Sequence record: NC_023593.1 | Length of the DNA: 64,000 bases | Strand: one strand, 5' to 3' | Source: Escherichia phage KBNP1711 | Shown here: piece by piece, positions 15,873 to 62,995 of the stretch | Layout of the letters: each line of letters starts with the position of its first letter | Position numbering within the stretch: position 1 is the stretch's first letter | Made by a program: the position numbers and the translations under genes | Notes under the pieces: generated by a model | The model's input: the letters and a program-made list of their open reading frames with translations, nothing else | What the model was told of the DNA's origin: nothing | Databases searched by the model: none

Positions 15873-16676
15873 ATGGCAGTAGAAACTAATGCTAACACAA
15901 TTAATGACCTCAACCCCCTGTACCCTCGTGACAGGGATTATCTTTACGAAGGGGCGGCTCAGATTCGCCTTGTTAAACAAGTATTGCAGAATACTTTTCC
16001 AAACGTAACAGAGCCAGTTCAGTTGGACTCAGATTCTCTCAATATTCTGGCTAGCAAAGTTACCTTTACTGGTGACTCTATGGATGTTGGTGGGTTGATG
16101 ATCAAGAATGCCACTCCGGGCACAGGTGATAGAGATGTTGTTACTAAAGGCCAGATGGAAGCTTTCATGCAGAACTGGATGGCTAACAAAGTATTCAGAA
16201 TTGGTTCTTACTATATCACTGAAGAAGATATTAACCCTGGTGATAGTTCTTCTCTTGGTTTTGGCTCTTGGGCTAAAGTGACTGGCGTTATCATGGGTTC
16301 TGGTGTAGTAAACCCTGATGGTTCTGTTCCTAATGCTCAGCGTGTTGAATTCCAAGCAGGTGGTACAGGTGGTCGTGTGTTTAACACTGTCCGTTCTGAT
16401 AACCTACCTCTTGTAACTATTAACGGTTCAAGCTTCTCAGTGTCTAGTAACACACACAGTCATAACATGGTGTTTGGTCGTGGTGACGCAAGTGGTCATA
16501 ACAGTTCCCCTAACTGGTATAGTCCGGGTGGTGGTTATAATCAGAGAACTGAAAATGATACACACTCTCACACAATCTCTGGTTCTGTATCTTTTGGTCG
16601 TGATGATGTTTCTCGTCAACCAATCAATACTTTACCACCTTTCCGATCTGCACACATCTGGAGACGTATTAGCTAA
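15873..16676 (+). CDS. tail fibre-like protein with HxH motifs
   Basis: Repeated 'THSH' motifs as in fibre tips; tail-gene context. Confidence 0.45.
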   Translation: MAVETNANTINDLNPLYPRDRDYLYEGAAQIRLVKQVLQNTFPNVTEPVQLDSDSLNILASKVTFTGDSMDVGGLMIKNATPGTGDRDVVTKGQMEAFMQNWMANKVFRIGSYYITEEDINPGDSSSLGFGSWAKVTGVIMGSGVVNPDGSVPNAQRVEFQAGGTGGRVFNTVRSDNLPLVTINGSSFSVSSNTHSHNMVFGRGDASGHNSSPNWYSPGGGYNQRTENDTHSHTISGSVSFGRDDVSRQPINTLPPFRSAHIWRRIS

Positions 16677-16685
16677 GGAGGAATT

Positions 16686-44892: not shown

Positions 44893-45549
44893 TTAATTCT
44901 CCAAAGTTTTCTTCAGAGCTGCCCACGAGATTGGGTAGAGTTTAGCCATCTCTTCATCCAGAGATTGAGCAAACACTCGAACTTCGTATTGAGCGTGAGA
45001 GGAGAGTCGCTGACGACACAACTCAAACCAGCCATACAAAGAACCAGTCCACACCCACTCAGTGATCATTCCCTGAGGAAGAACAAATCGAGCTTGCTCT
45101 GGTGCAACGAATTCAATCAACTTGTCATATGCTGCTAGAGAGGCTTCATATGCATCGTTAATCAACATTAATGCTTCAGCTCGCTCTCCATCAATGAGTT
45201 GAACCCCTGAACCTGCATGGAGGTCCGAAGGTCTCGCAAAAATCTCTTTAGGGATGAAGACTTCAACTGCTCCATCTTTATACCTCCGGGACATTTCGTT
45301 CCACGAGAATCCAACCTGATGCTTGCCCAGCTGTCTCGCAATTGCGATAGGTGCTTTGCATCGGAAACTGACTTGCGGGTGCCTGAAAGGCGTGACATGC
45401 TTCTCTCTTGCGAGGAAGTTGATGAGACGTTCATCACGTTCATTTAAATCACCTTCACGGGTTACGCCAAAGGAAACTCGAGCTGCGTTTACTACGCTAC
45501 GATCACTTCCCATAGCTTCGATTAATGTTGCTTGTAATTGTTCATTCAT
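44893..45549 (-). CDS. thyX: flavin-dependent thymidylate synthase (ThyX family), atypical RHR motif
   Basis: Matches recalled Thermotoga ThyX ('AARVSF','KAPI..ARQ','S.RY','SHAQ.E'); has KHQ where RHR is expected. Confidence 0.65.
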   Translation of the reverse strand: MNEQLQATLIEAMGSDRSVVNAARVSFGVTREGDLNERDERLINFLAREKHVTPFRHPQVSFRCKAPIAIARQLGKHQVGFSWNEMSRRYKDGAVEVFIPKEIFARPSDLHAGSGVQLIDGERAEALMLINDAYEASLAAYDKLIEFVAPEQARFVLPQGMITEWVWTGSLYGWFELCRQRLSSHAQYEVRVFAQSLDEEMAKLYPISWAALKKTLEN

Positions 45550-47840: not shown

Positions 47841-48055
47841 TAGTAATGTACCTTTCCGCTGATATAAATACGGCCTGAGGTATACTCATAGCCCTTGAGA
47901 ATCTTAACAGAGGTAGTGGAGCCATCGTTTAGTGCACAGATTGACTTCTTAAGATTGCGTGCATCTTCTCGTGTCTTCTGGTAGGTCATGGTCACACCCC
48001 CACTCTTCCACTCTGTTTTAACTAACCAAACTATTTTCATAAGACCTGCTCTCAT
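47840..48055 (-). CDS. small protein, paralogue family member
   Basis: Tandem array member. Confidence 0.4.
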   Translation of the reverse strand: MRAGLMKIVWLVKTEWKSGGVTMTYQKTREDARNLKKSICALNDGSTTSVKILKGYEYTSGRIYISGKVHY

Positions 48056-48267
48056 TAGTAGTACACCTTGCTACCAGCCATAAATGCCCCTGTTGAGTTT
48101 ATCATGGCTTTGCTGATAGTAACTTTCTTACACCGTAAACATACCTTCCAGTTCTTTTTACAGATTCGAGCTTCTTGTCGAGTGTTACAAAAAATAGCCG
48201 AAGATATTTCTTGGGTGTTGTTATCATAAACACGAACACACCACTTTTTCATTGTTCCAAACTCCAC
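48055..48267 (-). CDS. small protein, paralogue family member
   Basis: Tandem array member. Confidence 0.4.
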   Translation of the reverse strand: MEFGTMKKWCVRVYDNNTQEISSAIFCNTRQEARICKKNWKVCLRCKKVTISKAMINSTGAFMAGSKVYY

Positions 48268-48467
48268 TATCTGTCAACCGATTCAGGGACAAACTGCATT
48301 ACACAGACCTGATTACGAGGAAGGTTTATTTCACAAGCGGCTTTTCTATCAGCAACCTTAGATGACGAGTTAGGGCCAATTTGAGCCATCATTAATCCCA
48401 TAGCTAACATGCCGAGGATTACACCAATTGCTAAAGATGCTACAGTTTCTTGTTTCATCTTGATCAC
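48267..48467 (-). CDS. small membrane protein
   Basis: One hydrophobic segment 'LAIGVILGMLAMGLMMA'. Confidence 0.3.
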   Translation of the reverse strand: MIKMKQETVASLAIGVILGMLAMGLMMAQIGPNSSSKVADRKAACEINLPRNQVCVMQFVPESVDR

Positions 48468-48997
48468 ACCCCTTTAGATGCAACTACACCTTCAGAATTA
48501 TTATAACGACCCTTCACTGCATATGAATGTTCCCCTGCATGAGAGTGCTCAAACATAACCATCTGACCAACACGCATACCAGCACGAACTCGTAAGCTAT
48601 GATGCTTGGTTACGTTATGGAATTCAAATGTCAGCTTACTGCTATTAAACCCTGCGTCTGCCCACCCAGCGTGGAGATGGTTCAAGCCACAACGAGCCAT
48701 CGAAGACCGCAGGACAAACAAACTGGAGATGTTATCTGGAAGGTTAAACTCTTCCATCGAGTGAGCTAAGAAGAATTGTCCCGGAGTAATGATAATACCG
48801 TCTTCAGGGATTTTTACTTCTTTCCACTTGAGATTTTCTTTCGCATCAATGTCAACAATCCCATCAGCCTGTTCTTCAATAAGGATAGTATCACCAATAC
48901 GGATATCCACACTAGCAGCGTTAACATACTTATGCTCCGCATCCAGAAAACCGTTATCGATAACGTCGTGTAATTCCATGCTTCCTAATAAACTCAT
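48464..48997 (-). CDS. dcd: dCTP deaminase (dCTP deaminase/dUTPase superfamily)
   Basis: 'VDIRIGD', 'LRSSMARCGL', 'HAGWADAGF' match E. coli Dcd motifs (recalled). Confidence 0.65.
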   Translation of the reverse strand: MSLLGSMELHDVIDNGFLDAEHKYVNAASVDIRIGDTILIEEQADGIVDIDAKENLKWKEVKIPEDGIIITPGQFFLAHSMEEFNLPDNISSLFVLRSSMARCGLNHLHAGWADAGFNSSKLTFEFHNVTKHHSLRVRAGMRVGQMVMFEHSHAGEHSYAVKGRYNNSEGVVASKGV

Positions 48998-49011
48998 TCT
49001 TATTCCTTATG

Positions 49012-50292
49012 TTAATCTGTGATACTGTCGCTTTCGTCAACCCAGACTGGATTATTAATCTGTCCTAAACGACGAGCTGATGTTTCGTTAATAGAGTTAA
49101 CCCCTGCTGTGCGAGGGTTTGTGTACCACGGTCGGACTATGCTACCCGACTGAATTGCTTGGTTTGCTTCTACATGCCACCTGTTTGATACCGTGTTGGC
49201 TTCAAAGTTACCACCCGCTCCACCACTGATAGGCACAGCTTGAGCTGGTTGATTTACTCGGTTAGTTCCTGCCCCAAAGGCTGCTGCAAATTCAGACACA
49301 CGTGCACTAAATGAAGAACGAGCACGCTGAGGAGGTGATATATCATTTCGTGTATCTACTGCACGAGGCATAGCCCAAGTATCATCTGTTGAGATATCAG
49401 GGGTAGGCTCTTGCTCTAGAGGTTGAAGATTAGCTGTCCATTGACTATTCAGTATACGATAGAAATCTGCACCATAACCACTTCGGATAACATCCTCTCT
49501 GACACCAAAGAAGCGACTGATATCCCCACCGATTCGGGCTAGTTTGTCATTGTATGCAGGTATGATTATTCCACCCTCTGTCACTAAATCAGAGACACGA
49601 CTTGTTGTAAGTGGTGAAGTGATCCAACAATAATAATCAGTAATGTGACCATCGTATCCGAAGAATGCAATCTCTGCATCAGGCCATTTCTTGTGGACAT
49701 ATGCCACTTCACGGTTAGAACAAACAGGGATTGCACCTGTTTCAGTCATTGCATAGAAGCCGTCAGAAGAGAACCAAAGTGAATCTAGTGCTAAGAATCC
49801 ACGACACACGCTCGGGAAAGTAGCAGCCAGCGCCCCAAGTGAGGTAGGTTCATTGAACATTAACTGAATCTTTGCACTCTGATAATTAATCTCTAGGATA
49901 TCTACAAAATTCAAAGAAGACCCAGGGGCATATTGATTATTACTTCGTCCAATATCCTGCTCAATGAGAAGAGATCTTGTTTCAACACCATGAGCCTCTG
50001 CCCACTCTTTGAAATCTTCAAGGAACAAGCGAGCCTTAGCTCGCCACATCGACCGATCAGTTACAGACTGTCTCGGCAATCCACCCTCTGTAGTGATGAG
50101 AAAGATATCAATGTCGTGAGGTTCACGCGTCTGAAAGATTGCATCCCTAACAGCACCACCTGCAATGATAGGGTACACACCATCAGGGATTAAACGGTTT
50201 GCAATCAACTCGTTAATTAACGTAAGACCAGACACAAGCTGCGGACTATCATCAATCCGACGACGAATTAGTGCATTAGGGATATTATACAT
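49012..50292 (-). CDS. nucleotidyltransferase (CCA-adding/poly(A) polymerase head-domain type)
   Basis: 'IIAGGAVRDAIF...HDIDIFL' matches the 'GGxVRD...DxD' active site. Confidence 0.5.
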   Translation of the reverse strand: MYNIPNALIRRRIDDSPQLVSGLTLINELIANRLIPDGVYPIIAGGAVRDAIFQTREPHDIDIFLITTEGGLPRQSVTDRSMWRAKARLFLEDFKEWAEAHGVETRSLLIEQDIGRSNNQYAPGSSLNFVDILEINYQSAKIQLMFNEPTSLGALAATFPSVCRGFLALDSLWFSSDGFYAMTETGAIPVCSNREVAYVHKKWPDAEIAFFGYDGHITDYYCWITSPLTTSRVSDLVTEGGIIIPAYNDKLARIGGDISRFFGVREDVIRSGYGADFYRILNSQWTANLQPLEQEPTPDISTDDTWAMPRAVDTRNDISPPQRARSSFSARVSEFAAAFGAGTNRVNQPAQAVPISGGAGGNFEANTVSNRWHVEANQAIQSGSIVRPWYTNPRTAGVNSINETSARRLGQINNPVWVDESDSITD

Positions 50293-50841
50293 TTACATTT
50301 TCCAATATAAAGATGGGGGGTCATTTGGGTCAAAGTTTGCAATATGGCAAAGATATTTATAAACCTTAACCGTTAAGTTTACGTCCTGTTCACAATAAGT
50401 AAACATGTCCTCTGTAAAGGCATCCCATGCTTCTTCCTGTTCACCGTAATCACCCTTAAGCTCTTCTAAGAACTCACCCCATTGCTTTAAGCCATGACCT
50501 CTTGGGCCATGTCTAGGGTCGCCTTTCGGATACTCAGGACTGTCACCAATACGGTCAGGTTTAAGATACCGACTCAGACATAAAGTGTCTAGGACGTTGA
50601 ATTTGTAATCAATCAAATCAGGGTACATCTTCTTCAGAGCACATAAGTCGAAGTCAATAACGTTATGACCTACAACAACATCAGCCTCTGTAAGTTTCTT
50701 GATACCCTCTTCAATCTGGTGAGGGCGAAATCCCCACCGTTCACCAGTTGATATATCGAAGATAAAGATACACCATACGTTTGTGATATTGTCGTACAGT
50801 GCATCACTCTCAATATCAAATGCGTAGACTTTCTTTACCAC
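50293..50841 (-). CDS. DnaQ-like 3'-5' exonuclease
   Basis: Exo I 'YAFDIESD', Exo II-like '[11 protein letters not shown]'. Confidence 0.55.
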
Positions 50842-52625
50842 GGGCTTTTCTCTCCATCTTGAGCAAGAAGTGATGCTGCATCCTCTCCATTTGTCAGCGA
50901 GAATGGGTTTTCTTCATCAATTTCATGATCTTCACGCTCAAGCAACCGTCCCGTCTCTCCTACATACTTCGTATAGCACACCCCTGTTTGTCCATAGTTA
51001 CGCTCTTTGAGGAGTCGTATAATGGAGAGGTTCTTAGCCAGACCATCTGCTTGTTTGTCACGTTCAAAACCGATGATACATTGACACCAACGCATAAGAG
51101 AACGAGAGCCAGTAAACTGTACCTCTCGAACCTGACCACCTTCTTCATGAGGTGCACCACCTGCCGGAGCATTGAGGTGAGATAGTACGAATGCTGTGAA
51201 GTTTAATTCTTGACACATACCAGCAAGCTCGGAAGCAATCTTACTGATTTCAGTGTTAATCTCTGAAGGTGTTAAATGAGACACCAGAGCGGTAATGTTA
51301 TCAAGGATGATAAACTTACACTGGTTTTCAACAACCCAGAAACGGATACACTGTTTAATGTCGGCCCATTCATTCTGACCAAAGTTATCATAGAGGAAGA
51401 ATTTATCTGCATATCGAAGAGCTTCGTTACGCAATGTATCTTCATCATACTCAACATCAGGTCTATGGAAAGGAATAGATGCTGACTTGCCTGCAATGTT
51501 CTTAACGGACATTCCGACCTTCTCTTCCAAGAAGAATCCGCCACCATTAAAACCATGCTCAAGGCAAAGCCAAGCAACCAGTTCATGTGCAATCAATGTT
51601 TTACCAGAGCCTACACCACCACCAATTGCTACCATTTCTCCCCAACGAATACCGTAGGTCATCTCATTAAGAGTTTTCCACGGGTATGGGATACCCCACT
51701 CTGCTTTCTTCAGAGCATCATCTAAGCAATCAAAAACAGTTACAGCACCAGCTGGAGATTCCCGCTTCGCTGAATATTTAAGAATGTTAAACAATTCCTG
51801 ACCACGACCAGAGAGGAGCATATCATTCGCATCTTTAAGCTCTTTCTCAACACCGTTGTACTGGAAAGAACCTTTAGGAATACGAGCAAACTTCACATGT
51901 GGGAACAGAGCACGCCCTTTGGTAAGAGCAATCTCACCAGCATCATCGTTGTCCATACAAAGGACAACCTCTTCAAAACCATTCAAGAACTCACGGTTGC
52001 GAGACAGAACGGAAGAAATCGACCCTGCACCGAACGGTAAAGAGACACACGCTGGTTTAATGTTTGTTGCATTTGTAAAAGCTGTAAGAACGTGGAAGCC
52101 AGACATGCAAGACAAGGGGTCTTCAAAGATGAAGAGCTTCTTATTATACACATCTCCACGTTTAGCCTGTGCCATACCAAACAAATCAGCTTCTTTCACA
52201 CTACCGATGTAATAAAACTTTTTACTATCAAGTAGTTTAACCTCGTAACCGACAATGTTTCCGTCACGTTCACGAGGAAAGAAGTAACTGTCCGGTGTCT
52301 GACCATCAGTTTGACTGAGACCAATACGACATTCAAAACGCTCTGATACAGCTTTAGGGATTAATCGACGAGTGAGTTCTCCTTGAGGTAACTCCAAGCA
52401 ATCATCCAAGACCTCTCGAAGTTCTTCAGGGGACAGCTCTTTCTTTTCATTTGGTGTAGGTGTCGTGCCTTTCTCAAAGACTTCGTAATTACCACACCGG
52501 TTACAACTACCCCACTCTTCACCGGATTCCTCATTACGGAAGAGAATCATGTGATTGTGGGTTTTATCACGACCATGAGAGATGCACTCCTTACAGCCTG
52601 TGTCTCCCAAAATGATCTTTGACAT
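50835..52625 (-). CDS. primase-helicase (T7 gp4-like)
   Basis: N-terminal Zn ribbon (CxxC...CxxC), TOPRIM 'MDNDDAG', Walker A 'GGGVGSGKT'. Confidence 0.75.
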
Positions 52626-52662
52626 GCTCTATCCTCCTTGGATTCTCCTTGAGCAAACTACC

Positions 52663-52872
52663 TTACTTATAAAAACTTCGAATCATGTCCCAGATTTCTT
52701 CCTGCTGGACCCTAAAGAAAGCTAAACGTGTCGATGTACGTTCGATAAACTCTTCACTATGCTTTTCTCTATCTAGCATACTGACAAGCTTTTCGTATTT
52801 ATTGATCTTCCATCGCATTTTTAAATAGTCTGATTCTAGTGTCCTTAACCTCTGACACTCAATCAAATCCAT
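52663..52872 (-). CDS. hypothetical small protein
   Basis: ORF track. Confidence 0.3.
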   Translation of the reverse strand: MDLIECQRLRTLESDYLKMRWKINKYEKLVSMLDREKHSEEFIERTSTRLAFFRVQQEEIWDMIRSFYK

Positions 52873-53291
52873 CAGTTATCCTCTGACAGATAAAGAGACC
52901 AGTCACCAGATTCAACCAGTTCATCTTGCTCTTCATCAATGTGATAAATCCAAGCAGTGACAGTTTCACCACTATCCAGAACCACTTCGATAGGTGTACG
53001 CTTGTAGAAAGTGTGTGGGTTGTCATTACCACGATGCCCTTCCAGCATGTCATAAGCGCCCTCAACACCATCCATATCCGTCTTAAACACTTCAACACGA
53101 ACAGGTTTACCGTTACTGCTGTGTTCCAGAGAAACACTTGGGAAGTATGAACCACCGTAGCGGTACAGGTTGTAGTTTTCTTTAGTGAAACCTTCACCAA
53201 TCGATTCAGCACCTGCACGAGCATTCACTCGGAAGTTAGCCTGACCAGTACGAAGAGAACCATAAGTTGCTACATAAATTACTTCTGACAT
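52872..53291 (-). CDS. gamma-glutamylcyclotransferase-like (AIG2/YtfP family)
   Basis: N-terminal 'YVATYGSLRTGQAN', C-terminal 'VESGDW', cf. E. coli YtfP. Confidence 0.55.
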   Translation of the reverse strand: MSEVIYVATYGSLRTGQANFRVNARAGAESIGEGFTKENYNLYRYGGSYFPSVSLEHSSNGKPVRVEVFKTDMDGVEGAYDMLEGHRGNDNPHTFYKRTPIEVVLDSGETVTAWIYHIDEEQDELVESGDWSLYLSEDN

Positions 53292-53362
53292 TTTAAATAC
53301 CTTTGTTCATTGTTTAGTTAATCCGAACTAGCCTCCTCTTTCGAAGAAGCTAGAGCAGATTG

Positions 53363-53545
53363 CTATGCTGTGAAGTTTTTGATTACACCGCAAATAACAT
53401 CTGTTTCAAACGTACCCACCAGAACATCGTCTCGGTAGAAGTTAATCGCTCTACCGTCTCGGTTAAAGTGATCTGCTTCAATGAGCATTGACTGTACCTG
53501 ACCATCTGGAGTGGAGGTTCGAAAGATGACGTTATACTGACTCAT
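53363..53545 (-). CDS. hypothetical small protein
   Basis: ORF track. Confidence 0.3.
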   Translation of the reverse strand: MSQYNVIFRTSTPDGQVQSMLIEADHFNRDGRAINFYRDDVLVGTFETDVICGVIKNFTA

Positions 53546-53784
53546 AAAGAAGTTACTCCCTTATCTTCTTGGGCGATAGAGATGATACGACTCACACACT
53601 GCATTGAGTACTCATCTCCACGCTTTAGGAACGTTACGATAGCAGAGAATTGATTACCAATCATCCGCTCATTTGTGATACCGAACTCTTTGCAGAGTTC
53701 TTTCAGTTTGCTACGAGAACCAATAATCAGAGGCTCTTTTTCTTCAGTCATTCCGCGACTAATCAAATCTTCAATAGACAACAT
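53542..53784 (-). CDS. hypothetical small protein
   Basis: ORF track. Confidence 0.3.
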   Translation of the reverse strand: MLSIEDLISRGMTEEKEPLIIGSRSKLKELCKEFGITNERMIGNQFSAIVTFLKRGDEYSMQCVSRIISIAQEDKGVTSL

Positions 53785-53807
53785 AATTCCATTCCTTGGG
53801 GGTTTAA

Positions 53808-55025
53808 TTAAAAGTTTACTACTTCACCATTAACGGTAGTTACTGATGCAAGACGACGAACACGACCAATCTGTTCACGACTAATTGGAGTGTTCCAACC
53901 AGAGCGATAGAAGTTGCGACCGCAGAAGAATACAACAACATTAGAAGCAATCCGTCCGTAGTTACGATCAGGGTGGTTGATATTCGCTAGGTAATATCCA
54001 CGGGTCAGGTTTGCATTTTCATTAATGGGACGAGCATTTGGTGCAGTTGTTTCAGCTTGCATCACTTCTTGAACTTCTTCAACAACAGGCTCAACTGTAG
54101 GAGTATCACCAGCTAAAGCAAAGTTCTCATCAGCAGCCTCTTCTGCATCATCTTCCAGCTCCACAGTTTCCTGAATAACTGGCAGAGGGTATGCTACACG
54201 ATACTCAGGGTTTTGACCACGGAGAGACTCAACATACTGCAAGAAGTTGTGCTGGTAAGTTTCCAGAGTCGTACCAGTCAGGCCCGGAGCGGTGTTAACT
54301 TCTAACACCCATGCTTCCTCGCCTTTACTGATAATGTCAACAGCACCAAAGTTAAGACCGAGTGCTTGTACTGCTTTGTGCGCTTGAATCAGAACCTGAT
54401 CATTTGGTGAATCATTAAAAGCATTTGAATAAACCCAACCAGTGTGATGATTACGAACATCTTCACGATAGTCAGGGTTATCACGATACCCATTACGACG
54501 AATCTTCTTCTGTACGTAAGTAATAACACCTTCAAAGACATGAACACGCCATTCACGACGTGGGCCAGTGATTGCTTTCGTGTACAGAGGAGCCTCTGCA
54601 ATACCTTCACGAGTAAGACGAACAGTGATACCTTCACCAGAGTGACCGTTCAGTACACCACGTTCATAAACAATACTATTTCGGTTCCAGTTCTGTGCTT
54701 CTTCACGATTAGTGGTATATTCAACAGTCTTGACTTCCGCAAGACGCATAGTATTGAAAGCTGCAACCTTGTTCGCCGCACGATTCAACGCTGCTACGTT
54801 GTTCAGGACCGTTGCACCTTCGAAGAAGGATTCTTGATAACGACGGTTTCCGTAGTTGATGATCACATCACCAGAACGAGCACGGAATCGGCTGGTTCCA
54901 TCAGACAGAAGAGCCATTGCGTTAGCATTGATTCGGTTGTCACGGAGATGTTGATTCAAGCTGGACACCAGAGCATTAACAGAATCAGAAGGGCCATAAG
55001 GGAGAACACGGATACGAGTAGTCAT
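53808..55025 (-). CDS. ATP-grasp ligase (RimK-like)
   Basis: 'GAVDIISKGEEAWVLEVNTAPGL' matches the RimK C-terminal ATP-grasp motif. Confidence 0.6.
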   Translation of the reverse strand: MTTRIRVLPYGPSDSVNALVSSLNQHLRDNRINANAMALLSDGTSRFRARSGDVIINYGNRRYQESFFEGATVLNNVAALNRAANKVAAFNTMRLAEVKTVEYTTNREEAQNWNRNSIVYERGVLNGHSGEGITVRLTREGIAEAPLYTKAITGPRREWRVHVFEGVITYVQKKIRRNGYRDNPDYREDVRNHHTGWVYSNAFNDSPNDQVLIQAHKAVQALGLNFGAVDIISKGEEAWVLEVNTAPGLTGTTLETYQHNFLQYVESLRGQNPEYRVAYPLPVIQETVELEDDAEEAADENFALAGDTPTVEPVVEEVQEVMQAETTAPNARPINENANLTRGYYLANINHPDRNYGRIASNVVVFFCGRNFYRSGWNTPISREQIGRVRRLASVTTVNGEVVNF

Positions 55026-55027
55026 TT

Positions 55028-55261
55028 TTAGATACCTTTAAGTTTAAGAATTTCGTTGCGAGTACGTTGGATACGTTCTTCAAGAGTGTGATAATCAAAG
55101 ATGCAGATCTCTTCTGCTTCATCAGAAGGTGCATCCATTAAACCCATAGCAATCGGATACACTTTTCGCTGTTCCGTTGTCATGTTCTGTAGCCGGAGTC
55201 GTTGATACTCCAGCAGGGTAATTTTCGGCTTGTTAGTTTCCTTGCTTGACATGAGGCTCAA
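55028..55261 (-). CDS. hypothetical small protein
   Basis: ORF track. Confidence 0.3.
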   Translation of the reverse strand: MSLMSSKETNKPKITLLEYQRLRLQNMTTEQRKVYPIAMGLMDAPSDEAEEICIFDYHTLEERIQRTRNEILKLKGI

Positions 55262-55466
55262 CCTTGATACCTTTCAGTTTCACATAGTCAGCCAGCACGT
55301 TGTTAATAACTGTTGGGAAAGGAATCTCAACAGGTGCATTAACTAACCCACCAATACCCTCTTGCATCCACTTCTGGATTGCACGAAGGTTATCACATCC
55401 TGTGCTTGTCATTGGAATACGGCGAGTGGTTACAACGTTATCCAACATCATCTTACGAATTTCCAT
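55233..55466 (-). CDS. hypothetical small protein
   Basis: ORF track. Confidence 0.3.
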   Translation of the reverse strand: MEIRKMMLDNVVTTRRIPMTSTGCDNLRAIQKWMQEGIGGLVNAPVEIPFPTVINNVLADYVKLKGIKVEPHVKQGN

Positions 55467-55476
55467 AATACACCTC

Positions 55477-57495
55477 TTAATTATGACCTTTACAGTGCAC
55501 TGAATCGCACACCACTTGATTGGTATTGTTTAGTGTGCAGAGTTCTGCATCACGCCACGGAATCTTTTTAAAACAGACTGCACAAAACCCCAAAGTAGAC
55601 CAGAGGGCTTTTGTGAAGGTTGCTGAACGGTTTCCATCGGAAGAGGCAACTGTTCTGGTAATTGAGACTTTTGACTCACGAAAGGTTTCCGCTACTGGAG
55701 CGGATTCCTCCTTTGGGGTAGTCACTGCAATAGCATAAATACCACCCCAACGCTTCTCAATGTAAGCACCGAATACATCTTCCAGAGTGATTTCACTCTT
55801 ACGCTTGGTTGAGGATTCCATGACAACCATGTTGTCCAGAATCTTTTGATCGACACGAAGAGCTACTTCAGGACGTCGAGCACTTGTTGTATCAACACAC
55901 TTAGTCCAAACATAACCCTCTTTCAGGGTGACTTGAGTTGCTTGCTTCTTTGCTTTATTAGCACAGATTTTACAAACATCGTCACCACGAAGTTTACTGA
56001 ACTCTTCATCAAATTCAAAGTCAGACTTCACTTCACCGCACACCGAACAAACACCGATAGGAATCTCATCCTCTTCAACGTCTTCTACTTGCTTCTGGAT
56101 AGAATCAAAACAAGCTTTATGCCAATATGCTTGGTATGCGAAGATTGCACTTGGGGCTTCTTTCCAGTCGATGTGCTTATCACAGCCACCACAATCACCA
56201 TGGGAATGGGCTTCCCAGAACTTACGAGTGATAGTCACCCCATTCTTGCTGACAAAACTATCCTCTGCATCAAAAGGGATATCATCATCGAAATCAGCTG
56301 TAGTGCTTTCCGGCTCCTTTTTCGACAAGTCAAAGAAGTGACCAGAGATCAACACCAAACGAATCATGCTATTAACTTCAGAAATACAGCCAACCGTACC
56401 ACGGTAAACCATATGCTTATTCTTAAGAGCAGCTTCGTAATCAGTTTGCAGGATGTTATGAACATCACCCTCAATATACTCTTGAGCTTTGTCATCATAA
56501 ATATAACCAACCATCTTACCGCGATCGGTATCTTTATAACAAACAAACTCGTGAGGAATAATATCAACCTGCATATCACGACGGATATCAACACCTTTGT
56601 CAGATGCGATCTTGTTTTGTTTCAAGATTGCTTCACGACGACGTACATCACCTGCGGTTACGCCGGGCTTTCTTTGCTCGTCGCTGTTCCCGTTTACGTA
56701 ACTTTTTATCCCGCTTGAGTGATTGTTGCTGTAGCTGTTCGAGTAATAACTTCCCCAACGCGTTGCTACCGTAAAAACCGGGAGTTCATGTACGACCTCC
56801 TCTACCAAAGTCATCTTGTTGTCAGAAACATCAAAGATGTACTCTGTACCGACTTTACACTCAAAGTGCTCATCGATTCGATTCTTGTGGCTCTTAGAAC
56901 GCTGAAGAATCCACATCAACATAGCTTCTTCTGAAGCACCAAACCATGAAGTTCCCAGACGGGCCAGATGGAATGGACGCTCATCGTTGCGAATGATGTG
57001 AAGACGGTTATCACTTGCATCATGCCAGATCAGAGTGAATGCACCATCCAACTTCTGAATAGTCTCTGCTGCACCAATCTTGTTAATAGAGTGGCAGATG
57101 TTCTCACTATCAACCTCAAAAACCTTACTGTCAGGCAGAAGGTCTTGATCAACTAAGGTTCCGTTATGAACCAGAGTGATGTTTCCGTGAGAGAATGGGT
57201 GAGCGTTACGTGAGTTAATAGCACCTTTCGTAGCATGTCGGCTATGACCAACAATCCATGAAGGAGGCACTGTGTAATTAGTAAGGCCAGTTGTCAGCTC
57301 GGTGTACTCTTTCTGTAACATGAAAGCATAGGAAGGTAGTGCTTCTTTGTAAGAGAACACAGATCTTTCGCTTTTACGCTGACCGAAAATACCAGTTGAG
57401 TGTTGACCACGAAATACACCAGCATAAAGAAGCTGGTTGTAAACATCTAAGTCATAACTTGAGAGGCTTCCACCTGCTAATACGATACCACAAAT
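55477..57495 (-). CDS. class-II (Ntn) glutamine amidotransferase fused to a Cys-rich C-terminal domain; probable AUU start
   Basis: Frame open upstream of track start 57360 encodes 'CGIVLAGG...FRGQHSTGI'; AGGTGG 7 nt before ATT. Confidence 0.55.
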   Translation of the reverse strand: MCGIVLAGGSLSSYDLDVYNQLLYAGVFRGQHSTGIFGQRKSERSVFSYKEALPSYAFMLQKEYTELTTGLTNYTVPPSWIVGHSRHATKGAINSRNAHPFSHGNITLVHNGTLVDQDLLPDSKVFEVDSENICHSINKIGAAETIQKLDGAFTLIWHDASDNRLHIIRNDERPFHLARLGTSWFGASEEAMLMWILQRSKSHKNRIDEHFECKVGTEYIFDVSDNKMTLVEEVVHELPVFTVATRWGSYYSNSYSNNHSSGIKSYVNGNSDEQRKPGVTAGDVRRREAILKQNKIASDKGVDIRRDMQVDIIPHEFVCYKDTDRGKMVGYIYDDKAQEYIEGDVHNILQTDYEAALKNKHMVYRGTVGCISEVNSMIRLVLISGHFFDLSKKEPESTTADFDDDIPFDAEDSFVSKNGVTITRKFWEAHSHGDCGGCDKHIDWKEAPSAIFAYQAYWHKACFDSIQKQVEDVEEDEIPIGVCSVCGEVKSDFEFDEEFSKLRGDDVCKICANKAKKQATQVTLKEGYVWTKCVDTTSARRPEVALRVDQKILDNMVVMESSTKRKSEITLEDVFGAYIEKRWGGIYAIAVTTPKEESAPVAETFRESKVSITRTVASSDGNRSATFTKALWSTLGFCAVCFKKIPWRDAELCTLNNTNQVVCDSVHCKGHN

Positions 57496-57569
57496 TTTCT
57501 AATCCACCTGAAGGGTAAACCCTTTCATCTAATTAACCTTTAATTGTGCCCCTTTCGAGGCACCCATTG

Positions 57570-58670
57570 TTACAGCAGTCGTTCTAACTGAATTTCCAAG
57601 TGGTCTGGAATATACTCAGTGACGTTGTTATCAGAGACGCCAGATTCACGCATCATGTTGAGCATGTTACGAATCTGCCCTTCTGTTGCTTCACGAGTTT
57701 CACTAATCTCTGTTTCATACAGAGCCATGATCTCGTTATGAACATCTTGAGCATTACCACGGACATATCCGAGGAAGCCATAGAAGTCAGACATATCACG
57801 AAGGGATACAACTACCGACCCACTACTATCAAGAGTTTGTAAACGAATACGCCCAACCTGACGCACAGATCGGTTACGACAGAACAGGATATCACGAGCC
57901 AGACGATAACCGCTATCAAGATCTTCGTGTCTTGGGGTGTAGTCCAGAGGTAGGTGCGGGAGCATAGGGTCAAAACGAACCCTGTTGAGCATCTCAACAA
58001 ACTCTTCATTGTCCATCTCTGCATTTTCAACTGCTAATTTCTTAAGAACCAAGAAGCGGTTTACCAGATTTAACAGCTGACCTTTCTTCCACTTAGGCTC
58101 TGAGATACGGAACTCAACAGAACCGAACTGAGCCAGAGGGAGTAGGTTGAGTGATGTGTACTTATCCCAACGGTCGACGATATGTCGGAAGAAGTTCTCA
58201 CCTTCGTAGTTAAATGCTTCAGAAGCGTTCATTACTTGAGCCTGAACCACTGCAAAAGCAGGACAGAAATTACTACGGTAACGGTGATAACCAGAGCACT
58301 TAAACATCAATGCTTCATAGAAAGTCCACCCAAGGATAACTTTCTTAACGATATTGCTATCAGCATCTCGCATATCCATATGAACGTGAGTGGAACATCG
58401 CCAAGTCCCTTCTGCTTCGGACTCCATCACTGCCTCACTCAGATTGTTGATAGCGTCAAACAGTTCTACACCATTGTAAGGGCGAGAACAGACCATTTCA
58501 CATCCGTTGCGAAGCGAGCCATCCTCTGTACATTCCCACATATCTGCTTCGATATGATCGTCACCTTCAAGCTCCAGCTCAATACCAATACCGCATTGGA
58601 ATGCGATACTCGGATGTGCTTCACTCAGACGATTACTACGGTATCCAAAAGCTTGCGCTACAGTTGTCAT
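57570..58670 (-). CDS. carboxylate-amine ligase (GCS2/YbdK-like amidoligase)
   Basis: 'GIGIELELEG', 'EDGSLRNGCEMV', 'STHVHMDM', cf. YbdK. Confidence 0.5.
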   Translation of the reverse strand: MTTVAQAFGYRSNRLSEAHPSIAFQCGIGIELELEGDDHIEADMWECTEDGSLRNGCEMVCSRPYNGVELFDAINNLSEAVMESEAEGTWRCSTHVHMDMRDADSNIVKKVILGWTFYEALMFKCSGYHRYRSNFCPAFAVVQAQVMNASEAFNYEGENFFRHIVDRWDKYTSLNLLPLAQFGSVEFRISEPKWKKGQLLNLVNRFLVLKKLAVENAEMDNEEFVEMLNRVRFDPMLPHLPLDYTPRHEDLDSGYRLARDILFCRNRSVRQVGRIRLQTLDSSGSVVVSLRDMSDFYGFLGYVRGNAQDVHNEIMALYETEISETREATEGQIRNMLNMMRESGVSDNNVTEYIPDHLEIQLERLL

Positions 58671-59281
58671 AACGACTCCACTAACTCCACAGTGTATTGG
58701 TTAAAATCACTTTCAATATGCTTGAACTTGTCAAGCAGTTGTACGGTCTGACGACCACGGCTGTCATATCCAGCACTAAGAAGCACACGACCAACATGTG
58801 CACCTTTATAATAAACAAGACCATCAGAAGGATTGATGAAGATAAAGCGAGTCAACAAGCCTTCAAAGGATGGGTTAAACAGGTTATAAACCATCTCACC
58901 AGAGATGTTACGACCTAGAGAAGTTACGCCACGGAGTTTGTTACCCATCAACCCCTTAGCTCGCTGACGAACTGGATTGATGTGAGTCCAACTTACCATG
59001 TTACGTCCGTGTTGAAGATAACCAACATCAGGGGATTCCAGAATCAGGTTAGGGTTGAAAACCCCAATCTGAACTGTTGTACGGTTAAACCCTGAGTCTG
59101 TTTTAAACCAACGCTCTGCTTCGAACATCAAAGCCATCTCTGCTTCATGAGAGAAGTCATCACGAGAGAACTCACCTTGTTGGAATACGTTCATAACAAA
59201 CAGTGGGATGTTTAAGTTCCCACGTCTTTCAGCAATCCATGTCCCACAATAGTAATGAGAGAAGTCAGTTACTAAGCTCAC
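58667..59281 (-). CDS. hypothetical protein in amide-ligase cluster
   Basis: ORF track; ATGA overlap with upstream gene. Confidence 0.4.
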   Translation of the reverse strand: MSLVTDFSHYYCGTWIAERRGNLNIPLFVMNVFQQGEFSRDDFSHEAEMALMFEAERWFKTDSGFNRTTVQIGVFNPNLILESPDVGYLQHGRNMVSWTHINPVRQRAKGLMGNKLRGVTSLGRNISGEMVYNLFNPSFEGLLTRFIFINPSDGLVYYKGAHVGRVLLSAGYDSRGRQTVQLLDKFKHIESDFNQYTVELVESL

Positions 59282-59290
59282 GATAACCCC

Positions 59291-60097
59291 TTACGCTACC
59301 TGTAAACGTTTCAAGAACACATCTGCTTCACGAACATCGTTGGTGTTGATGATCTGGTGCAGCTTTTCAATCGGAAGGCGAGAGTGGAGGCTCATCAAGA
59401 ACTCCATGTCGCTATTTTGTACAACCTTGTCAACTTGATCGTACACGAATTGACGATCTTCTTTCTTGCCAATCCAGAAGTTCGACAGAGAGCGATACTC
59501 AATGCCATAAGGTTTGTAACGGATTGCGGATGCTTTACCGTACAGCTCTTTACGTCGAGTATCACCATCCATCAGAACAGCAGGCAATGACAGGAAGTAA
59601 TCACACAGAACGCCCAGCATCATCTGAACCTTCTTATTCACATCCAGAGAGCCAGTGACACCAATGTGCACATGACCACCTGCTGTACGCAAGCCCTTGT
59701 TCTCTGAAGTTGGAGAAGCATTCTTTTGACCAGTGAATGCGTTGAAGTCTGGAGTACAACCAAACACGAAAGCGGACGGATGGAATGATTCCAATTCCTC
59801 TTTAGAGAAGATATGAGAACTTACACCCAGAGCCGCTTCCATGTCCTGTTTCTTCAGAACTTCGTTGGTAAGATCAATACCGCGCTGAACGTTGTCATTA
59901 AACGCTTCAAAACCTTGTTGTGGGTTGATATCAAACTCAGCCAGCACGTTGTCTTCTTGGAGACGTACATCCTTAGCCAGATCGATTTTATTTTCTTTAG
60001 AACAACCCAGCTTGCCAGCAACAGAGGTGATGATGCCAGAAGAAGTACGAACAAACATCTCTGGGTCCGTTCCAATTAAAAAGATGCGCTTAGTCAT
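59291..60097 (-). CDS. carboxylate-amine ligase-like (second GCS2-like paralogue)
   Basis: 'LIGTDPEMFV' and 'GGHVHIG'; GGTGGA RBS before ATG 60097 (track ORF to 60178). Confidence 0.45.
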   Translation of the reverse strand: MTKRIFLIGTDPEMFVRTSSGIITSVAGKLGCSKENKIDLAKDVRLQEDNVLAEFDINPQQGFEAFNDNVQRGIDLTNEVLKKQDMEAALGVSSHIFSKEELESFHPSAFVFGCTPDFNAFTGQKNASPTSENKGLRTAGGHVHIGVTGSLDVNKKVQMMLGVLCDYFLSLPAVLMDGDTRRKELYGKASAIRYKPYGIEYRSLSNFWIGKKEDRQFVYDQVDKVVQNSDMEFLMSLHSRLPIEKLHQIINTNDVREADVFLKRLQVA

Positions 60098-61019
60098 TAT
60101 AGTATTCCACCAATTCTTTAAAGAGGGATATGATTGTTTCTTTGTTGCTCTCCATATTAGAGCCGCAACGACTTTCAATACGTTCTAAGAAACCATTTAC
60201 ATTGATGTTAGAAATCTTTTCATCAAGAGATGAACGTTTCCAACCAGTGCTCATAGACCAAACTCTCAAAAAGGTACTCATTGAAGAGTACATCTCTGCG
60301 TTTTGGTTTCGACGACGAGCAATACGACGAAGAGCTGCACGGTCATGGTTTCGGATATACCCTGATGTGTTATCACCTTCTCCGACTTTGTTTTGCAACC
60401 AAACGTCGGTTGAAAACTCACCTGTATTGCAAATAATCGGAAGAAATGCAAATGCTGGTAAATCATGCGGTAAATAGATAGATGTTGATTCGTCAGTGGA
60501 GTCATTAACTCTATCAAAGTTAAGCTCCCCAAAGAAGTCCTTACTTACCCCAGCAAGAGCTAGAGCTAATCCAACACGACGACGGAATAGCCATTCTTCT
60601 CTATCATCAACTCCCTCTGAAAGAAAATCCATAGATTCATACTCGCAATCGAGATAGCTACGGAAAGTCATTAGTCCTGTAAAAACTTTATCTGCTGCGT
60701 GTTCACGAAGATCAACCTCTACACTATTAGCAGAAGTTATTGTGAACATATCTTTGTACATAGAACAGGAGTTCAGTACATCAGCAGTATCCACCAAATG
60801 AGACTCAGTCTCATCCATGTTGCAGTGGGGCCAGTAGTTAATCTTACCCATGTGCGCTGTGAAGTTATCCAAGCTGGTTCGAGTACTCAGGCCGTTAATG
60901 TCACGAGTGCTAAAGTTGTGCATAGAGTTGTGGATACCGAAACAAACTCGGCTCGCAAAACTCTGCTCACCCAACATATCACTAACTTCTACAGGAGCTA
61001 ATGTTGTGGAAATTGCCAT
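60090..61019 (-). CDS. hypothetical protein in amide-ligase cluster
   Basis: ORF track. Confidence 0.4.
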   Translation of the reverse strand: MAISTTLAPVEVSDMLGEQSFASRVCFGIHNSMHNFSTRDINGLSTRTSLDNFTAHMGKINYWPHCNMDETESHLVDTADVLNSCSMYKDMFTITSANSVEVDLREHAADKVFTGLMTFRSYLDCEYESMDFLSEGVDDREEWLFRRRVGLALALAGVSKDFFGELNFDRVNDSTDESTSIYLPHDLPAFAFLPIICNTGEFSTDVWLQNKVGEGDNTSGYIRNHDRAALRRIARRRNQNAEMYSSMSTFLRVWSMSTGWKRSSLDEKISNINVNGFLERIESRCGSNMESNKETIISLFKELVEYYND

Positions 61020-61031
61020 TGTCTTTAACCT

Positions 61032-62225
61032 TTAATTTCCTAAGAAAAGTTTCGTGAGAATTGAATCCCACTCCGTACTAGGCAGCACATCAAAGCTGCT
61101 ATTATTTGACAAATTCGACTGTTGAAAGTGGCGAATCAGTGTGTAAGTGTTAACACGGTCATTACCAAATCGAGTATACAACAACTCGTTTCGAGTCTTG
61201 TCTGATAGGGAAATAGCTTTGGCAAAAGCTACAATCAGCATAGGCTCTTTGAGGGCACGATCTTGAAGGGCTTCTGGTTGAATAATAGGTAAGAACATCG
61301 AGTTGTTTACATACAGCTCATGCTCTTCGTGTCCGGGAACGTCATACCAAATACTCTGGTAGTCTTCATCACGAAAATGTCCTTCACCAGCCATATATGA
61401 CGGTTGACGCCACGCGGTCTGGCGAGGTTCTGCCATATTAGCTCCGATACCCACTGTGTACAGTGTTACAGGGAACAGGCAGTTGTCATATTCGTTACCA
61501 GTAAAGGCAACTCGTACTTCACCAAACAGGTTCTCTTTTGCGTTAATCAATCGAGAATAGGCAAGAGCTTGTAACGGAGACCAATTATCCATGTAGAGCT
61601 TATCAAGGAAAGTCCACACGTTTGCTTGTTCGTCTTCTTGATAGAACAGACGATTCACCATAAGGTAGAACAGGCAACGATCAGCAGGAACTGGTTCAGA
61701 TACATCTTCTGTTACTACACCCATAAAACCTTTTTCATGCCAAACAAGACATGAAGGACGATCTTTATCCATGAAAGCTTCAAGCGCTTCCATAACTGAC
61801 TTGACAGTTACATCAGGACGTTCACGATATTCAGCCCAAAGCTCAACTGCATTCTTAGGCTTTTCATCCCCTACATCAGCGTGATAGAAAGCATATTGGA
61901 AGGAGATGATGTTGTTGCTCCCATCCTTTCCACGCATAGGGATGTGGGTTCCAGAGTTCCAGATAATACGAATATCTTCCATTGACATATTTCTGCTCAG
62001 GACTTCATCTCTGCCTGAGCTTTGCATCAAGCTATAGCTGCTATCCCAAACATGGACATACTGCGTCCAGCCTTCATTGGCTTCGTAGGTAATGGGGTCG
62101 TAATAGTCGTCATCTTCATCACAATCATCACCACCATGGTAGTTGTCGTGCTGAAGAAATCCATAGCAAGGAGGCCAGACTGTTAATACGTTGTCGTGCT
62201 TATCCTGCAATGTTACTGGAAACAT
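61032..62225 (-). CDS. hypothetical protein in amide-ligase cluster
   Basis: ORF track. Confidence 0.4.
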   Translation of the reverse strand: MFPVTLQDKHDNVLTVWPPCYGFLQHDNYHGGDDCDEDDDYYDPITYEANEGWTQYVHVWDSSYSLMQSSGRDEVLSRNMSMEDIRIIWNSGTHIPMRGKDGSNNIISFQYAFYHADVGDEKPKNAVELWAEYRERPDVTVKSVMEALEAFMDKDRPSCLVWHEKGFMGVVTEDVSEPVPADRCLFYLMVNRLFYQEDEQANVWTFLDKLYMDNWSPLQALAYSRLINAKENLFGEVRVAFTGNEYDNCLFPVTLYTVGIGANMAEPRQTAWRQPSYMAGEGHFRDEDYQSIWYDVPGHEEHELYVNNSMFLPIIQPEALQDRALKEPMLIVAFAKAISLSDKTRNELLYTRFGNDRVNTYTLIRHFQQSNLSNNSSFDVLPSTEWDSILTKLFLGN

Positions 62226-62236
62226 TTTGAAACCTC

Positions 62237-62599
62237 TTATTGTTGTTTGATCAACTCAACGGACTTACGGATGTAAAGAATATCACGGAAGTTACGATAG
62301 TTGTTCATGAATTGATGCTTCTGGAACTCAGCTTCAAGCAGAGATTCTTTGGCACTTTCATAACTCTTACGGGCAAGATACACAACCCGCTCTGGTAATA
62401 CGTTTGCACGACGGATGATATACTTGTGAGCTTTCATATTGCTCTGCTCACGAGCTATCTTACTTTTTGCTACCGTAATGCCATTTGCAAGCCAAACAAG
62501 CTCTTGCTCAAGCTCTTCGTTGGACATTCCACCGAGGTTTGATGCAACCTTGTTCAGAGTTTCAATGTTAACGTTGCCCTTGATGGGACGTGTATTCAT
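62237..62599 (-). CDS. hypothetical protein
   Basis: ORF track. Confidence 0.35.
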   Translation of the reverse strand: MNTRPIKGNVNIETLNKVASNLGGMSNEELEQELVWLANGITVAKSKIAREQSNMKAHKYIIRRANVLPERVVYLARKSYESAKESLLEAEFQKHQFMNNYRNFRDILYIRKSVELIKQQ

Positions 62600-62601
62600 A
62601 C

Positions 62602-62757
62602 CTACTCCTGTTGTTTACACTCACCAATAACCCACTGATAAGAAGTGGATTGACCTGAAAAGAAACACTGAATAAATCCAGACGTTCTCTGCGTTACCAG
62701 TGCTAGTGCACATATCACTACCGCTGCTGCTAGCAGTTTCATATCTAATTTAGACAT
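62602..62757 (-). CDS. small secreted/membrane protein
   Basis: GAGAGGA RBS before internal Met; signal-like 'MKLLAAAVVICALALV'; track N-terminus would span a terminator hairpin. Confidence 0.35.
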   Translation of the reverse strand: MSKLDMKLLAAAVVICALALVTQRTSGFIQCFFSGQSTSYQWVIGECKQQE

Positions 62758-62776
62758 ATTTCCTCTCTTTGAATTT

Positions 62777-62801
62777 AAAAAAGGACTCTCCGAAAAGAGC
62801 C
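62777..62801 (-). terminator. rho-independent terminator (- strand)
   Basis: 'ggctctt ttcg gagagtcc' hairpin followed by 'tttttt' on the - strand. Confidence 0.5.
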
Positions 62802-62995
62802 AAGCTTTAAATACAAAAAAGATATTACCCAATATCTGTGGATAACCTGCTCTTAAAATATCTATCCGACGGATGTTCGAGGACTGTCCCTCTCCCTAGC
62901 ATCGGCCCCATACGGGAAATATATTAAGATTAGGTTAGTTGAGTCAGAATAACTCACATAGCCCTCCGGAGGGAAGGCTATAAATGTCACTCTAT

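Follow-up and report, generated by a model that had tools for sequence, protein, structure and literature searches.

The Phage Amidoligase Module in Escherichia Phage KBNP1711

The closest described relative of the locus studied here is a gene neighborhood of phage phiEco32 (Iyer, Abhiman, Burroughs and Aravind 2009), for which, according to a citing paper, cell-wall modification and superinfection exclusion were proposed. We analyzed a stretch of 64,000 nucleotides of Escherichia phage KBNP1711 (NC_023593.1; "the window" hereafter means this whole stretch), in which the open reading frame (ORF) list and translations place 14 genes between 52.6 and 62.6 kb, all co-oriented on the minus strand. 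This block is an intact further copy of the phiEco32-type phage amidoligase module, carried by the sister genus Nieuwekanaalvirus; the five enzyme families and their order are the same, and nothing essential differs. Judging from sequence, it encodes three ATP-dependent ligases with intact motifs, an N-terminal nucleophile (Ntn) amidotransferase that retains Cys1, a GGACT-type cyclotransferase, and four conserved accessory proteins. Relative to the 2009 prediction, which is known to us second-hand, the conserved members P204, P309/P397, and DUF7195 are added here, as are the paralogy of P309 and P397 with their invariant cysteine, a C26 hydrolase in Zobellviridae, a zinc-ribbon module, and an ATT start codon with an invariant leader.

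A similar combination of enzymes is found in pathways that use a gamma-glutamyl group as a "handle," which is added by a glutamine-synthetase-like or ATP-grasp ligase and later removed by an Ntn, C26, or cyclotransferase enzyme. The Puu pathway uses the ligase PuuA and the C26 hydrolase PuuD, ergothioneine synthesis the ligase EgtA and the Ntn amidohydrolase EgtC, and butirosin synthesis the ATP-grasp enzyme BtrJ and the cyclotransferase BtrG. The phage module differs from all three, as no orthology was found, NCBIfam scores were far below cut-off, and the phages have three ligases together with four accessory proteins.

The best relatives of positions 52600–62600 in megablast searches were Escherichia phages KarlSchell_Bas89 and EP335, which align over the whole query with 96.6–96.7% identity, EP335 being classified in the Gordonclarkvirinae, genus Nieuwekanaalvirus; about 90 further phiEco32-like phages align to the first 7.5 kb of this segment at ~74%. 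Orthology with phiEco32 itself is supported by its amidoligase, 72.8% identical over the full length (tblastn, EU330206), and the gene order of the block recurs in Kuravirus-like and Suseptimavirus records. We found a PF14395 gene, a PF12224 gene adjoining the gene for a class-II amidotransferase, from which it is 74 nt apart, and ATP-grasp and AIG2/GGCT genes within the same co-directional block. Public records that are ~97% identical already label these genes as gamma-glutamyl cyclotransferase, "ribosomal protein S6 glutaminyl transferase" or ATP-grasp, glutamine amidotransferase, amidoligase enzyme, and COOH.NH2 ligase. Because of these annotations, and because citing papers credit the 2009 prediction, the cluster must be regarded as already known. 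The original prediction for this DNA, made from its letters, had described an uncharacterized cluster. What it describes is the amidoligase system of the phiEco32 type, named as such by Pfam PF14395 and by PHROG annotations. Its remark that no function had been demonstrated agrees with our full-text literature searches, in which no report of an experimental function of the module was found.

The nine ORFs given in that prediction were all recovered on the minus strand, at the coordinates it gave, and five small genes are to be added to them, namely those of the 69-aa protein, of the two small ORFs following the ATP-grasp gene, of the 74-aa protein, and of DUF7195 (table 1). The gene overlaps are real and measure 4 nt at 58667–58670 (P204/amidoligase) and 8 nt at 60090–60097. 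The motifs that had been quoted are present in the translations, except that the COOH-NH2 ligase reads "GIEYR" and "GGHVHIG," not "GIELE." A primase/helicase gene (50835–52625) lies immediately downstream, so that the module is directly upstream of replication genes; the original prediction had placed it among such genes.

Table 1. Genes and Leader of the Amidoligase Module in the Window, in Order of Transcription
Feature	Position	Strand	Family or Remark
P120, 120 aa, basic, first gene of block	62237..62599	-	phrog_11370, unknown function; no known domain
P397, 397 aa, P309 paralog, invariant N-terminal C20	61032..62225	-	No Pfam match; hhalign
P309, 309 aa, phage-specific family	60090..61019	-	Invariant C26, R120, Y221
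COOH-NH2 ligase type 2, glutamine-synthetase-like carboxylate-amine ligase	59291..60097	-	PF14395; phrog_3815
P204, 204 aa, conserved protein, predicted beta-barrel	58667..59281	-	Always between the two ligase genes
Amidoligase_2, glutamine-synthetase-like carboxylate-amine ligase	57570..58670	-	PF12224; phrog_7469
Intergenic leader of the amidotransferase gene	57496..57569	-	Hairpin after amidoligase stop, then ~50 nt conserved with AGGTGG
Class-II (Ntn) glutamine amidotransferase, ATT start	55477..57495	-	GATase_6; Ntn domain ~residues 1-200
DUF7195 protein, 77 aa	55233..55466	-	PF23825, 1.1e-17
Small protein, 74 aa, Gordonclarkvirinae only	55028..55252	-	ORF and homolog search
RimK-like ATP-grasp ligase, residues 1-~270, then acidic linker and ~85-aa C-terminal domain	53808..55025	-	Profile versus PDB; phrog_2599, phrog_20552
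Two small ORFs, 80 aa and 60 aa, Gordonclarkvirinae only	53363..53784 (53363-53545; 53542-53784)	-	No Pfam match
GGACT/AIG2-type gamma-glutamyl cyclotransferase	52872..53291	-	PF06094; phrog_2520
69-aa protein, last gene before primase/helicase, Gordonclarkvirinae only	52663..52872	-	ORF and homolog search

The Three Ligases

Profile searches upheld most of the enzyme assignments, with GGACT, GATase_6, Amidoligase_2, and COOH-NH2_lig matched above their gathering scores and the ATP-grasp family recognized through a profile built from six lineages. The exception concerns the two glutamine-synthetase-like ligases, originally assigned to the GCS2/YbdK type: Neither is matched by the GCS2 family profile, they have no NCBIfam match, and their only Pfam matches at E ≤ 0.01 are Amidoligase_2 and COOH-NH2_lig, respectively. 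We take these two families and GCS2 to belong to one glutamine-synthetase-like superfamily; hhalign comparison of the Amidoligase_2 family with the COOH-NH2_lig family gave no signal, and searches of PDB sequences with the amidoligase and with the COOH-NH2 ligase gave no useful match.

The amidoligase matches PF12224 with an E-value of 1.3e-5 and phrog_7469 with 1.3e-146. E31-x-E33-x-E35, DGSLR, RCSTHxHxD, and GSxEFR are invariant in an alignment of six lineages, and tblastn detected the protein in 287 phage records from many host genera. The COOH-NH2 ligase matches PF14395, "Phage phiEco32-like COOH.NH2 ligase-type 2" (1.8e-7, 31.1 bits vs. a cut-off of 25), and phrog_3815 (2.4e-114), with D11-x-E13, QEDN, H142-x-H144, and E200-Y-R202 invariant in six lineages. 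In a collection of 5.8 billion proteins, it is represented by at least 3811 clusters at 90% identity, the 120 best of which are ~232–280 aa long, have PF14395 as their sole Pfam domain, and often lie on phage-sized contigs.

The closest relatives of the ATP-grasp protein among solved structures and NCBIfam families are RimK, MptN, and CofF. In Pfam it remains below the gathering scores of both Dala_Dala_lig_C (20.2 vs. 24) and RimK (18.1 vs. 21). The six-lineage profile matched the RimK structures 5zct/4iwx in the PDB (1.5e-8), and the nearest NCBIfam families, MptN (7.2e-8, the best) and the rimK family (1.2e-6), were matched with scores far below cut-off. The nucleotide- and Mg-binding motifs are retained, namely the G-H-S-G-x-G loop (GHSGxGI), D230, and E242-x-N244, all of which are invariant. 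On the other hand, the scores of the curated RimK families are not reached (28.2 vs. 143.4 bits for the rimK family and 22.4 vs. 331 for the S6-glutamate ligase), and the phage protein has an acidic linker and a C-terminal domain of its own. Within the part encoded at 53808–54160, the linker contains an "ADENFAL.GD" motif conserved in the window, SU7, and SE131, which may be a docking site; the ~85-aa C-terminal domain also matches a separate family of 82 positions, phrog_20552.

The Amidotransferase and the Enzymes Cleaving Gamma-Glutamyl Bonds

The amidotransferase matches GATase_6 in Pfam (4.4e-14, 53.1 bits vs. a cut-off of 27), and R28-G29, H83-x-R85, H109-N110-G111, and V127-D128-S129, which are invariant over nine lineages, are by inspection the usual Ntn amidotransferase motifs. 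Wherever a sequence was taken from its start, Cys1 came first; that of Vibrio began downstream of it. The Ntn domain is followed by a middle region and then by Cys-rich zinc-ribbon-like modules, whose CxxC...CxxC pattern is conserved in seven of the nine lineages. The C-terminal 448 aa matched nothing in Pfam or among PDB sequences, and they include no recognizable synthase or acceptor domain of a known type, such as those of GlmS, PurF, or AsnB; weak NCBIfam matches to GlmS, PurF, AsnB, and EgtC were confined to the Ntn domain.

The start codon of this gene is ATT (57495–57493), placed directly before the codon of the nucleophile cysteine (TAG AAA ATT TGT), with AGGTGG eight bases upstream. 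Because the true start is ATT, the mechanical ORF list opens the gene at a GTG at 57360, 45 codons late. The coding sequences annotated in the EP335 and SU7 records are shorter and lack Cys1. ATT is kept in EP335, Bas89, Bas86, and SU7, and four other lineages use ATG (ATG-TGT). The last ~50 nt of the leader, including the AGGTGG Shine-Dalgarno sequence, are 100% identical in three genera, compared with ~74% identity in the flanks. Just after the amidoligase stop, the three-genus alignment shows a hairpin with a compensatory U-A to C-G change in its stem, the fold of which is not exceptional (z = -1.36). The ATT start and the invariant leader may form a translational control element.

The cyclotransferase matches GGACT (PF06094) with an E-value of 3e-17 and 63.7 bits (cut-off 22.8), over profile positions 2–119 of 120, and phrog_2520 with 1.8e-43. 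"YGSLR" and "DMLEGH" are visible in its translation, as read from the letters rather than from a residue alignment to a solved enzyme, and a search of PDB sequences returned only a spurious designed repeat protein. Homologs were found in SE131, LAh_9, DL54, StenR_269, Vibrio 275E43-1, and CW02. The module of Salinivibrio phage CW02 contains in addition a Peptidase_C26/class-I GATase-type gamma-glutamyl hydrolase (Pfam, 3.9e-17). The corresponding extra gene of Zobellviridae is labeled glutamine amidotransferase in the neighborhoods of CW02 (235–882) and PA11 (432–1052), the PA11 copy being identified by its annotation. The recruitment of two unrelated enzymes that cleave gamma-glutamyl bonds, GGACT everywhere and C26 in Zobellviridae, points to gamma-glutamyl intermediates.

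Accessory Proteins

Among the proteins originally set down as four unknowns, P309 and P397 turned out to be paralogs rather than unrelated: hhalign aligned the two families with a probability of 97.9% (E = 5.7e-13) over a common "PADK/R...L..RN" core, and both have an invariant cysteine, part of a CFG/CYG motif, ~20–26 residues from the N-terminus, P397 having its C20 in "PCYG/PCFG." P397 has no Pfam match and has positional equivalents in SE131, Proteus 3H10_20, LAh_9, and DL54. A P309 profile run against 1.84 billion representative sequences retrieved 74 families of ~280–380 aa; in an alignment of 68 sequences, the three positions listed as invariant in table 1 are accompanied by F27, G28, D110, E177, and R223, which are nearly so. 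The predicted P309 model is confident and without a strong fold match, its best structural match being Dop, with a weak score. This gives a weak hint of a Dop/PafA/YbdK-like fold in the modeled protein, which sequence profiles do not confirm because hhalign gave no signal between P309 and either ligase family; the P309 profile found nothing useful among PDB sequences. Foldseek searches of viral models returned only uncharacterized proteins of module-bearing phages, including CW02 gp70, and this structure match is the only link of P309 to Zobellviridae. The gene of gp70, a P309-like protein of 503 aa, occupies 47879–49390 of the CW02 record and falls just upstream of the CW02 module if the linear record is read as a circle.

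P204 has a confident model, predicted to be a Tudor/KOW/Sm-like barrel, for which no fold was matched; its gene is invariably placed between those of the two ligases and overlaps the amidoligase start. DUF7195 lies directly downstream of the amidotransferase, and its homologs in SE131, Proteus, LAh_9, and DL54 are placed in the same way. It was considered as a Pup-like tag and rejected because its C-terminus is not conserved. P120, considered for the same role, ends in "KQQ" but is confined to Gordonclarkvirinae, as are four of the small ORFs. Bas86 and SU7 have a P120 homolog, 57% identical, in the corresponding place, and searching the neighborhoods fetched from other lineages with P120 revealed none.

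Hidden Markov models (HMMs) of P204, P309, P397, and DUF7195 gave no significant match to the positional equivalents in PA11, StenR_269, and Vibrio 275E43-1; these accessory proteins of Zobellviridae and StenR_269 escape the HMMs because they are too diverged. NCBIfam had no matches for the unknowns, and PADLOC none for the nine module proteins or the neighboring nucleotidyltransferase. A hydrophobicity scan detected no transmembrane segment in any module protein, and we dropped the idea of a membrane-bound cell-wall enzyme because no hydrophobic segment qualifies. Among the proteins identified by proteomics of phage SU10 are the ATP-grasp enzyme, the amidotransferase, the YtfP-like protein, and two of the unknowns, all given as early gene products; the P120 homolog detected there is gp91.

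Conservation of the Module across Phage Lineages

We scanned the neighborhoods of amidoligase homologs from distant phages with the window proteins and HMMs. The module is syntenic just upstream of the primase/helicase gene in five to seven lineages of phages at least. The recurrent order is P397-like, P309-like, COOH-NH2_lig, P204-like, Amidoligase_2, amidotransferase, DUF7195, ATP-grasp, and cyclotransferase. This order was found in Gordonclarkvirinae, Grimontviridae (Salmonella SE131, Proteus 3H10_20), Lahexavirus (Aeromonas LAh_9), and Bruynoghevirus (Pseudomonas DL54). Zobellviridae (PA11, Vibrio 275E43-1, Salinivibrio CW02) have all five enzymes in a rearranged order, and in StenR_269 no COOH-NH2_lig was detected. 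The same order was described in 2014 for UFV-P2, a LUZ24-like phage whose best matches were proteins of tf, PaP3, and LUZ24. The module is thus kept as a unit beside replisome genes in several phage lineages.

In a directed-evolution study of a Bruynoghevirus-type phage of P. aeruginosa, whose paired genes for an amidoligase (gp22) and an amidotransferase (gp23) resemble those of the module, the descendants from rounds 15 and 30 both had missense changes in these two genes, at different positions, which fits a role in host interaction. That these genes stay together beside the replisome in lineages sharing little else, with HNH genes inserted among them in some relatives, and that they were mutated in both sequenced descendants of the evolved phage, suggests an important step of infection. 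Annotations of a ribose-phosphate pyrophosphokinase and a nicotinamide phosphoribosyltransferase flank the module in the neighborhoods of LAh_9 (15046–18184) and SE131 (102–2665). This pair resembles the NAD-reconstitution gene pairs of phages.

Restriction Sites and Nucleotide Genes

The suggestion that the module might modify phage DNA was weakened by what is known of module-bearing relatives and of nucleotide metabolism in the window. DNA of tf, a LUZ24-like phage to whose proteins the UFV-P2 module ORFs were matched, was cut by RsaI, HpaI, EcoRV, SmaI, and HaeIII and then cloned, and DNA of the Bruynoghevirus Delta was cut by BamHI. The 64-kb window avoids CCWGG (8 sites observed vs. 88 expected), GATC (130 vs. 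252), GGATCC (0 vs. 9.9), CTGCAG (1 vs. 18), and GGCC (52 vs. 108), as is expected for DNA exposed to restriction. Sites for EcoRI (14), EcoRV (34), and EcoKI (8) are not avoided, and EcoRV sites, CAGCAG, and CTGCTG occur more often than expected. Site loss therefore does not explain the reported restriction resistance of the subfamily as far as EcoRI, EcoRV, and EcoKI are concerned.

Genes at 48464–50292 and 44893–45549 encode a dCTP deaminase (DCD, 1.4e-34), a 426-aa protein without Pfam match that is annotated in relatives as a nucleotidyltransferase (CCA-adding-like), and the thymidylate synthase ThyX (PF02511, 1.4e-43). As predicted from their sequences, ThyX and dCTP deaminase provide an ordinary dTMP supply. 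Clusters for phage thymidine hypermodification, described by Lee and colleagues in 2018 and 2022, are reported to lie near replication genes and to use free amino acids; they reportedly encode a ThyA-type hydroxymethylase, a 5-hydroxymethyldeoxyuridine (5-hmdU) DNA kinase, glycosylase-fold transferases, and pyridoxal phosphate (PLP) or radical S-adenosylmethionine (SAM) enzymes. None of these hypermodification enzymes was found among the ORFs scanned, which cover part of the window, and the thymidylate synthase there is ThyX.

Possible Functions

Glutamine-synthetase-like ligases commonly form gamma-glutamyl amides, as do PuuA, gamma-glutamylcysteine ligase, EgtA, and PafA; RimK, MptN, and CofF attach alpha-linked glutamate; and Ntn amidotransferase-type domains either deliver ammonia or hydrolyze a gamma-glutamyl amide, as EgtC does. 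We tentatively favor a cytoplasmic, early, ATP-dependent pathway of soluble enzymes that would build and trim a short glutamate-containing amide of gamma-glutamyl type on a small-molecule acceptor, for host takeover. The two glutamine-synthetase-like ligases would convert carboxylates to acyl-phosphates and couple these with amines, most plausibly giving gamma-glutamyl-type amides, and the ATP-grasp enzyme may add an alpha-linked glutamate or a similar residue. The amidotransferase could either transfer glutamine-derived ammonia to an activated carboxylate or hydrolyze a gamma-glutamyl amide, and the cyclotransferase would take off the gamma-glutamyl group as 5-oxoproline, with the C26 gamma-glutamyl hydrolase of Zobellviridae as a probable additional trimming enzyme. 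The product would be a short peptide-like chain containing glutamate on a cytoplasmic acceptor of low molecular weight, candidates being a polyamine, an amino acid or thiol peptide, and a cell-wall precursor, and it would serve host takeover, not the modification of phage DNA bases. From the enzyme families we infer in what order these reactions proceed, that the bonds are of the gamma-glutamyl kind, and what acceptor would be used.

Several observations weigh against such a pathway. Its acceptor is suggested by analogy with the pathways cited above, and the zinc-ribbon-like modules and the P204 barrel could bind nucleic acid or protein instead of a small molecule. Dop, the best if weak structural match of P309, is a protein-tag enzyme. 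The many EcoRI, EcoRV, and EcoKI sites are compatible with a DNA-directed role, and the BASEL study found Gordonclarkvirinae to be remarkably resistant to restriction-modification systems while having no known modification pathway.

The next alternative, a rather unlikely one, is that glutamate or a short peptide is put on a host or phage protein, either by RimK-like C-terminal glutamylation or as a PafA-like gamma-glutamyl-lysine isopeptide, the cyclotransferase, amidotransferase, and P309/P397 then acting as trimming or Dop-like enzymes. Peptide tagging is said to have been discussed by Iyer and colleagues in 2009 for related systems; the pupylation enzymes PafA and Dop were among the systems compared. 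RimK, the nearest relative of the ATP-grasp enzyme, is a protein glutamylase, and barrels and zinc ribbons such as those described above are typical interaction modules. However, no Pup-like tag was found, the DUF7195 C-terminus being variable, and the RimK family also contains ligases that add glutamate to small molecules, among them MptN, the family matched best in NCBIfam. It is very unlikely, though a specific sub-case of the small-molecule pathway and credited to Iyer et al. 2009 for phiEco32 by the citing paper mentioned above, that the module modifies cell-envelope precursors for superinfection exclusion, for example by amidating or extending cytoplasmic peptidoglycan precursors as MurT/GatD does. 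The literature searched yielded no experimental data on it, and the module proteins contain no membrane segment and no Mur ligase domain match. MurT/GatD pairs a ligase with a glutaminase, and peptidoglycan contains gamma-linked D-glutamate, both of which favor this idea; against it, the glutamate on which a cyclotransferase acts must carry a free alpha-amino group, which the D-isoglutamate of peptidoglycan does not have.

The attachment of an amino-acid- or amide-type group to phage DNA or to a dNTP precursor would account for the restriction resistance of Gordonclarkvirinae. It would fit the constant position of the module next to replisome genes, the broad resistance reported in the BASEL study, the unavoided EcoRI, EcoRV, and EcoKI sites, and a nucleic-acid-binding role of the zinc ribbons and the Tudor/KOW-like barrel. 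Yet at least six restriction enzymes cut DNA of module-bearing Bruynoghevirus phages, which was also shotgun-cloned, the strong avoidance of five other sites suggests exposure to restriction, and ThyX makes ordinary dTMP; the ORFs scanned included neither a hydroxymethylase nor a base kinase nor a glycosylase-type transferase. The BASEL authors, for their part, favor the dCTP deaminase and the nucleotidyltransferase as the possible basis of a DNA modification. Because of the restriction cutting, the site avoidance, and the ThyX/dCTP deaminase pair, we consider DNA modification unlikely, a minority possibility. Somewhat more doubtful still is the proposal that the module, perhaps together with the adjacent dCTP deaminase and nucleotidyltransferase, makes an amide-linked DNA or nucleotide modification, of glutamyl or amino-acid type, or some other anti-restriction product. 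Were it true, this would explain the broad resistance of Gordonclarkvirinae and would represent a new way of hypermodifying DNA, by means of ligases, that differs from the pathways already known.

With the numbers of COOH-NH2 ligase clusters and amidoligase-bearing phage genomes given above, spread over many host genera, the module, predicted computationally some 17 years ago in 2009, is not rare. Phages of the subfamily that infect E. coli K-12 exist (BASEL Bas86–93), which makes deletion genetics, metabolomics, and DNA mass spectrometry feasible; such work could also probe a link to the unexplained restriction resistance of the subfamily.

Flanking Sequences and Inserted Genes

Upstream of the first module gene, a gap of ~400 nt (62600–62995) contains a terminator-like hairpin (62801–62784, minus strand), and a terminator is annotated at the corresponding site of the SU7 record, which suggests that the module may start a transcription unit there. 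In relatives, HNH homing endonuclease genes are inserted where the P309 gene meets that of the COOH-NH2 ligase, ahead of the amidotransferase gene, and behind that of the primase (2520–3011, 5839–6348, and 10979–11449 in the segment of Bas89; 12039–12509 in that of Bas86; 13039–13509 in that of SU7). The BASEL records handle the junction insertion as a two-piece join of the ligase coding sequence, and the window is free of all these insertions.

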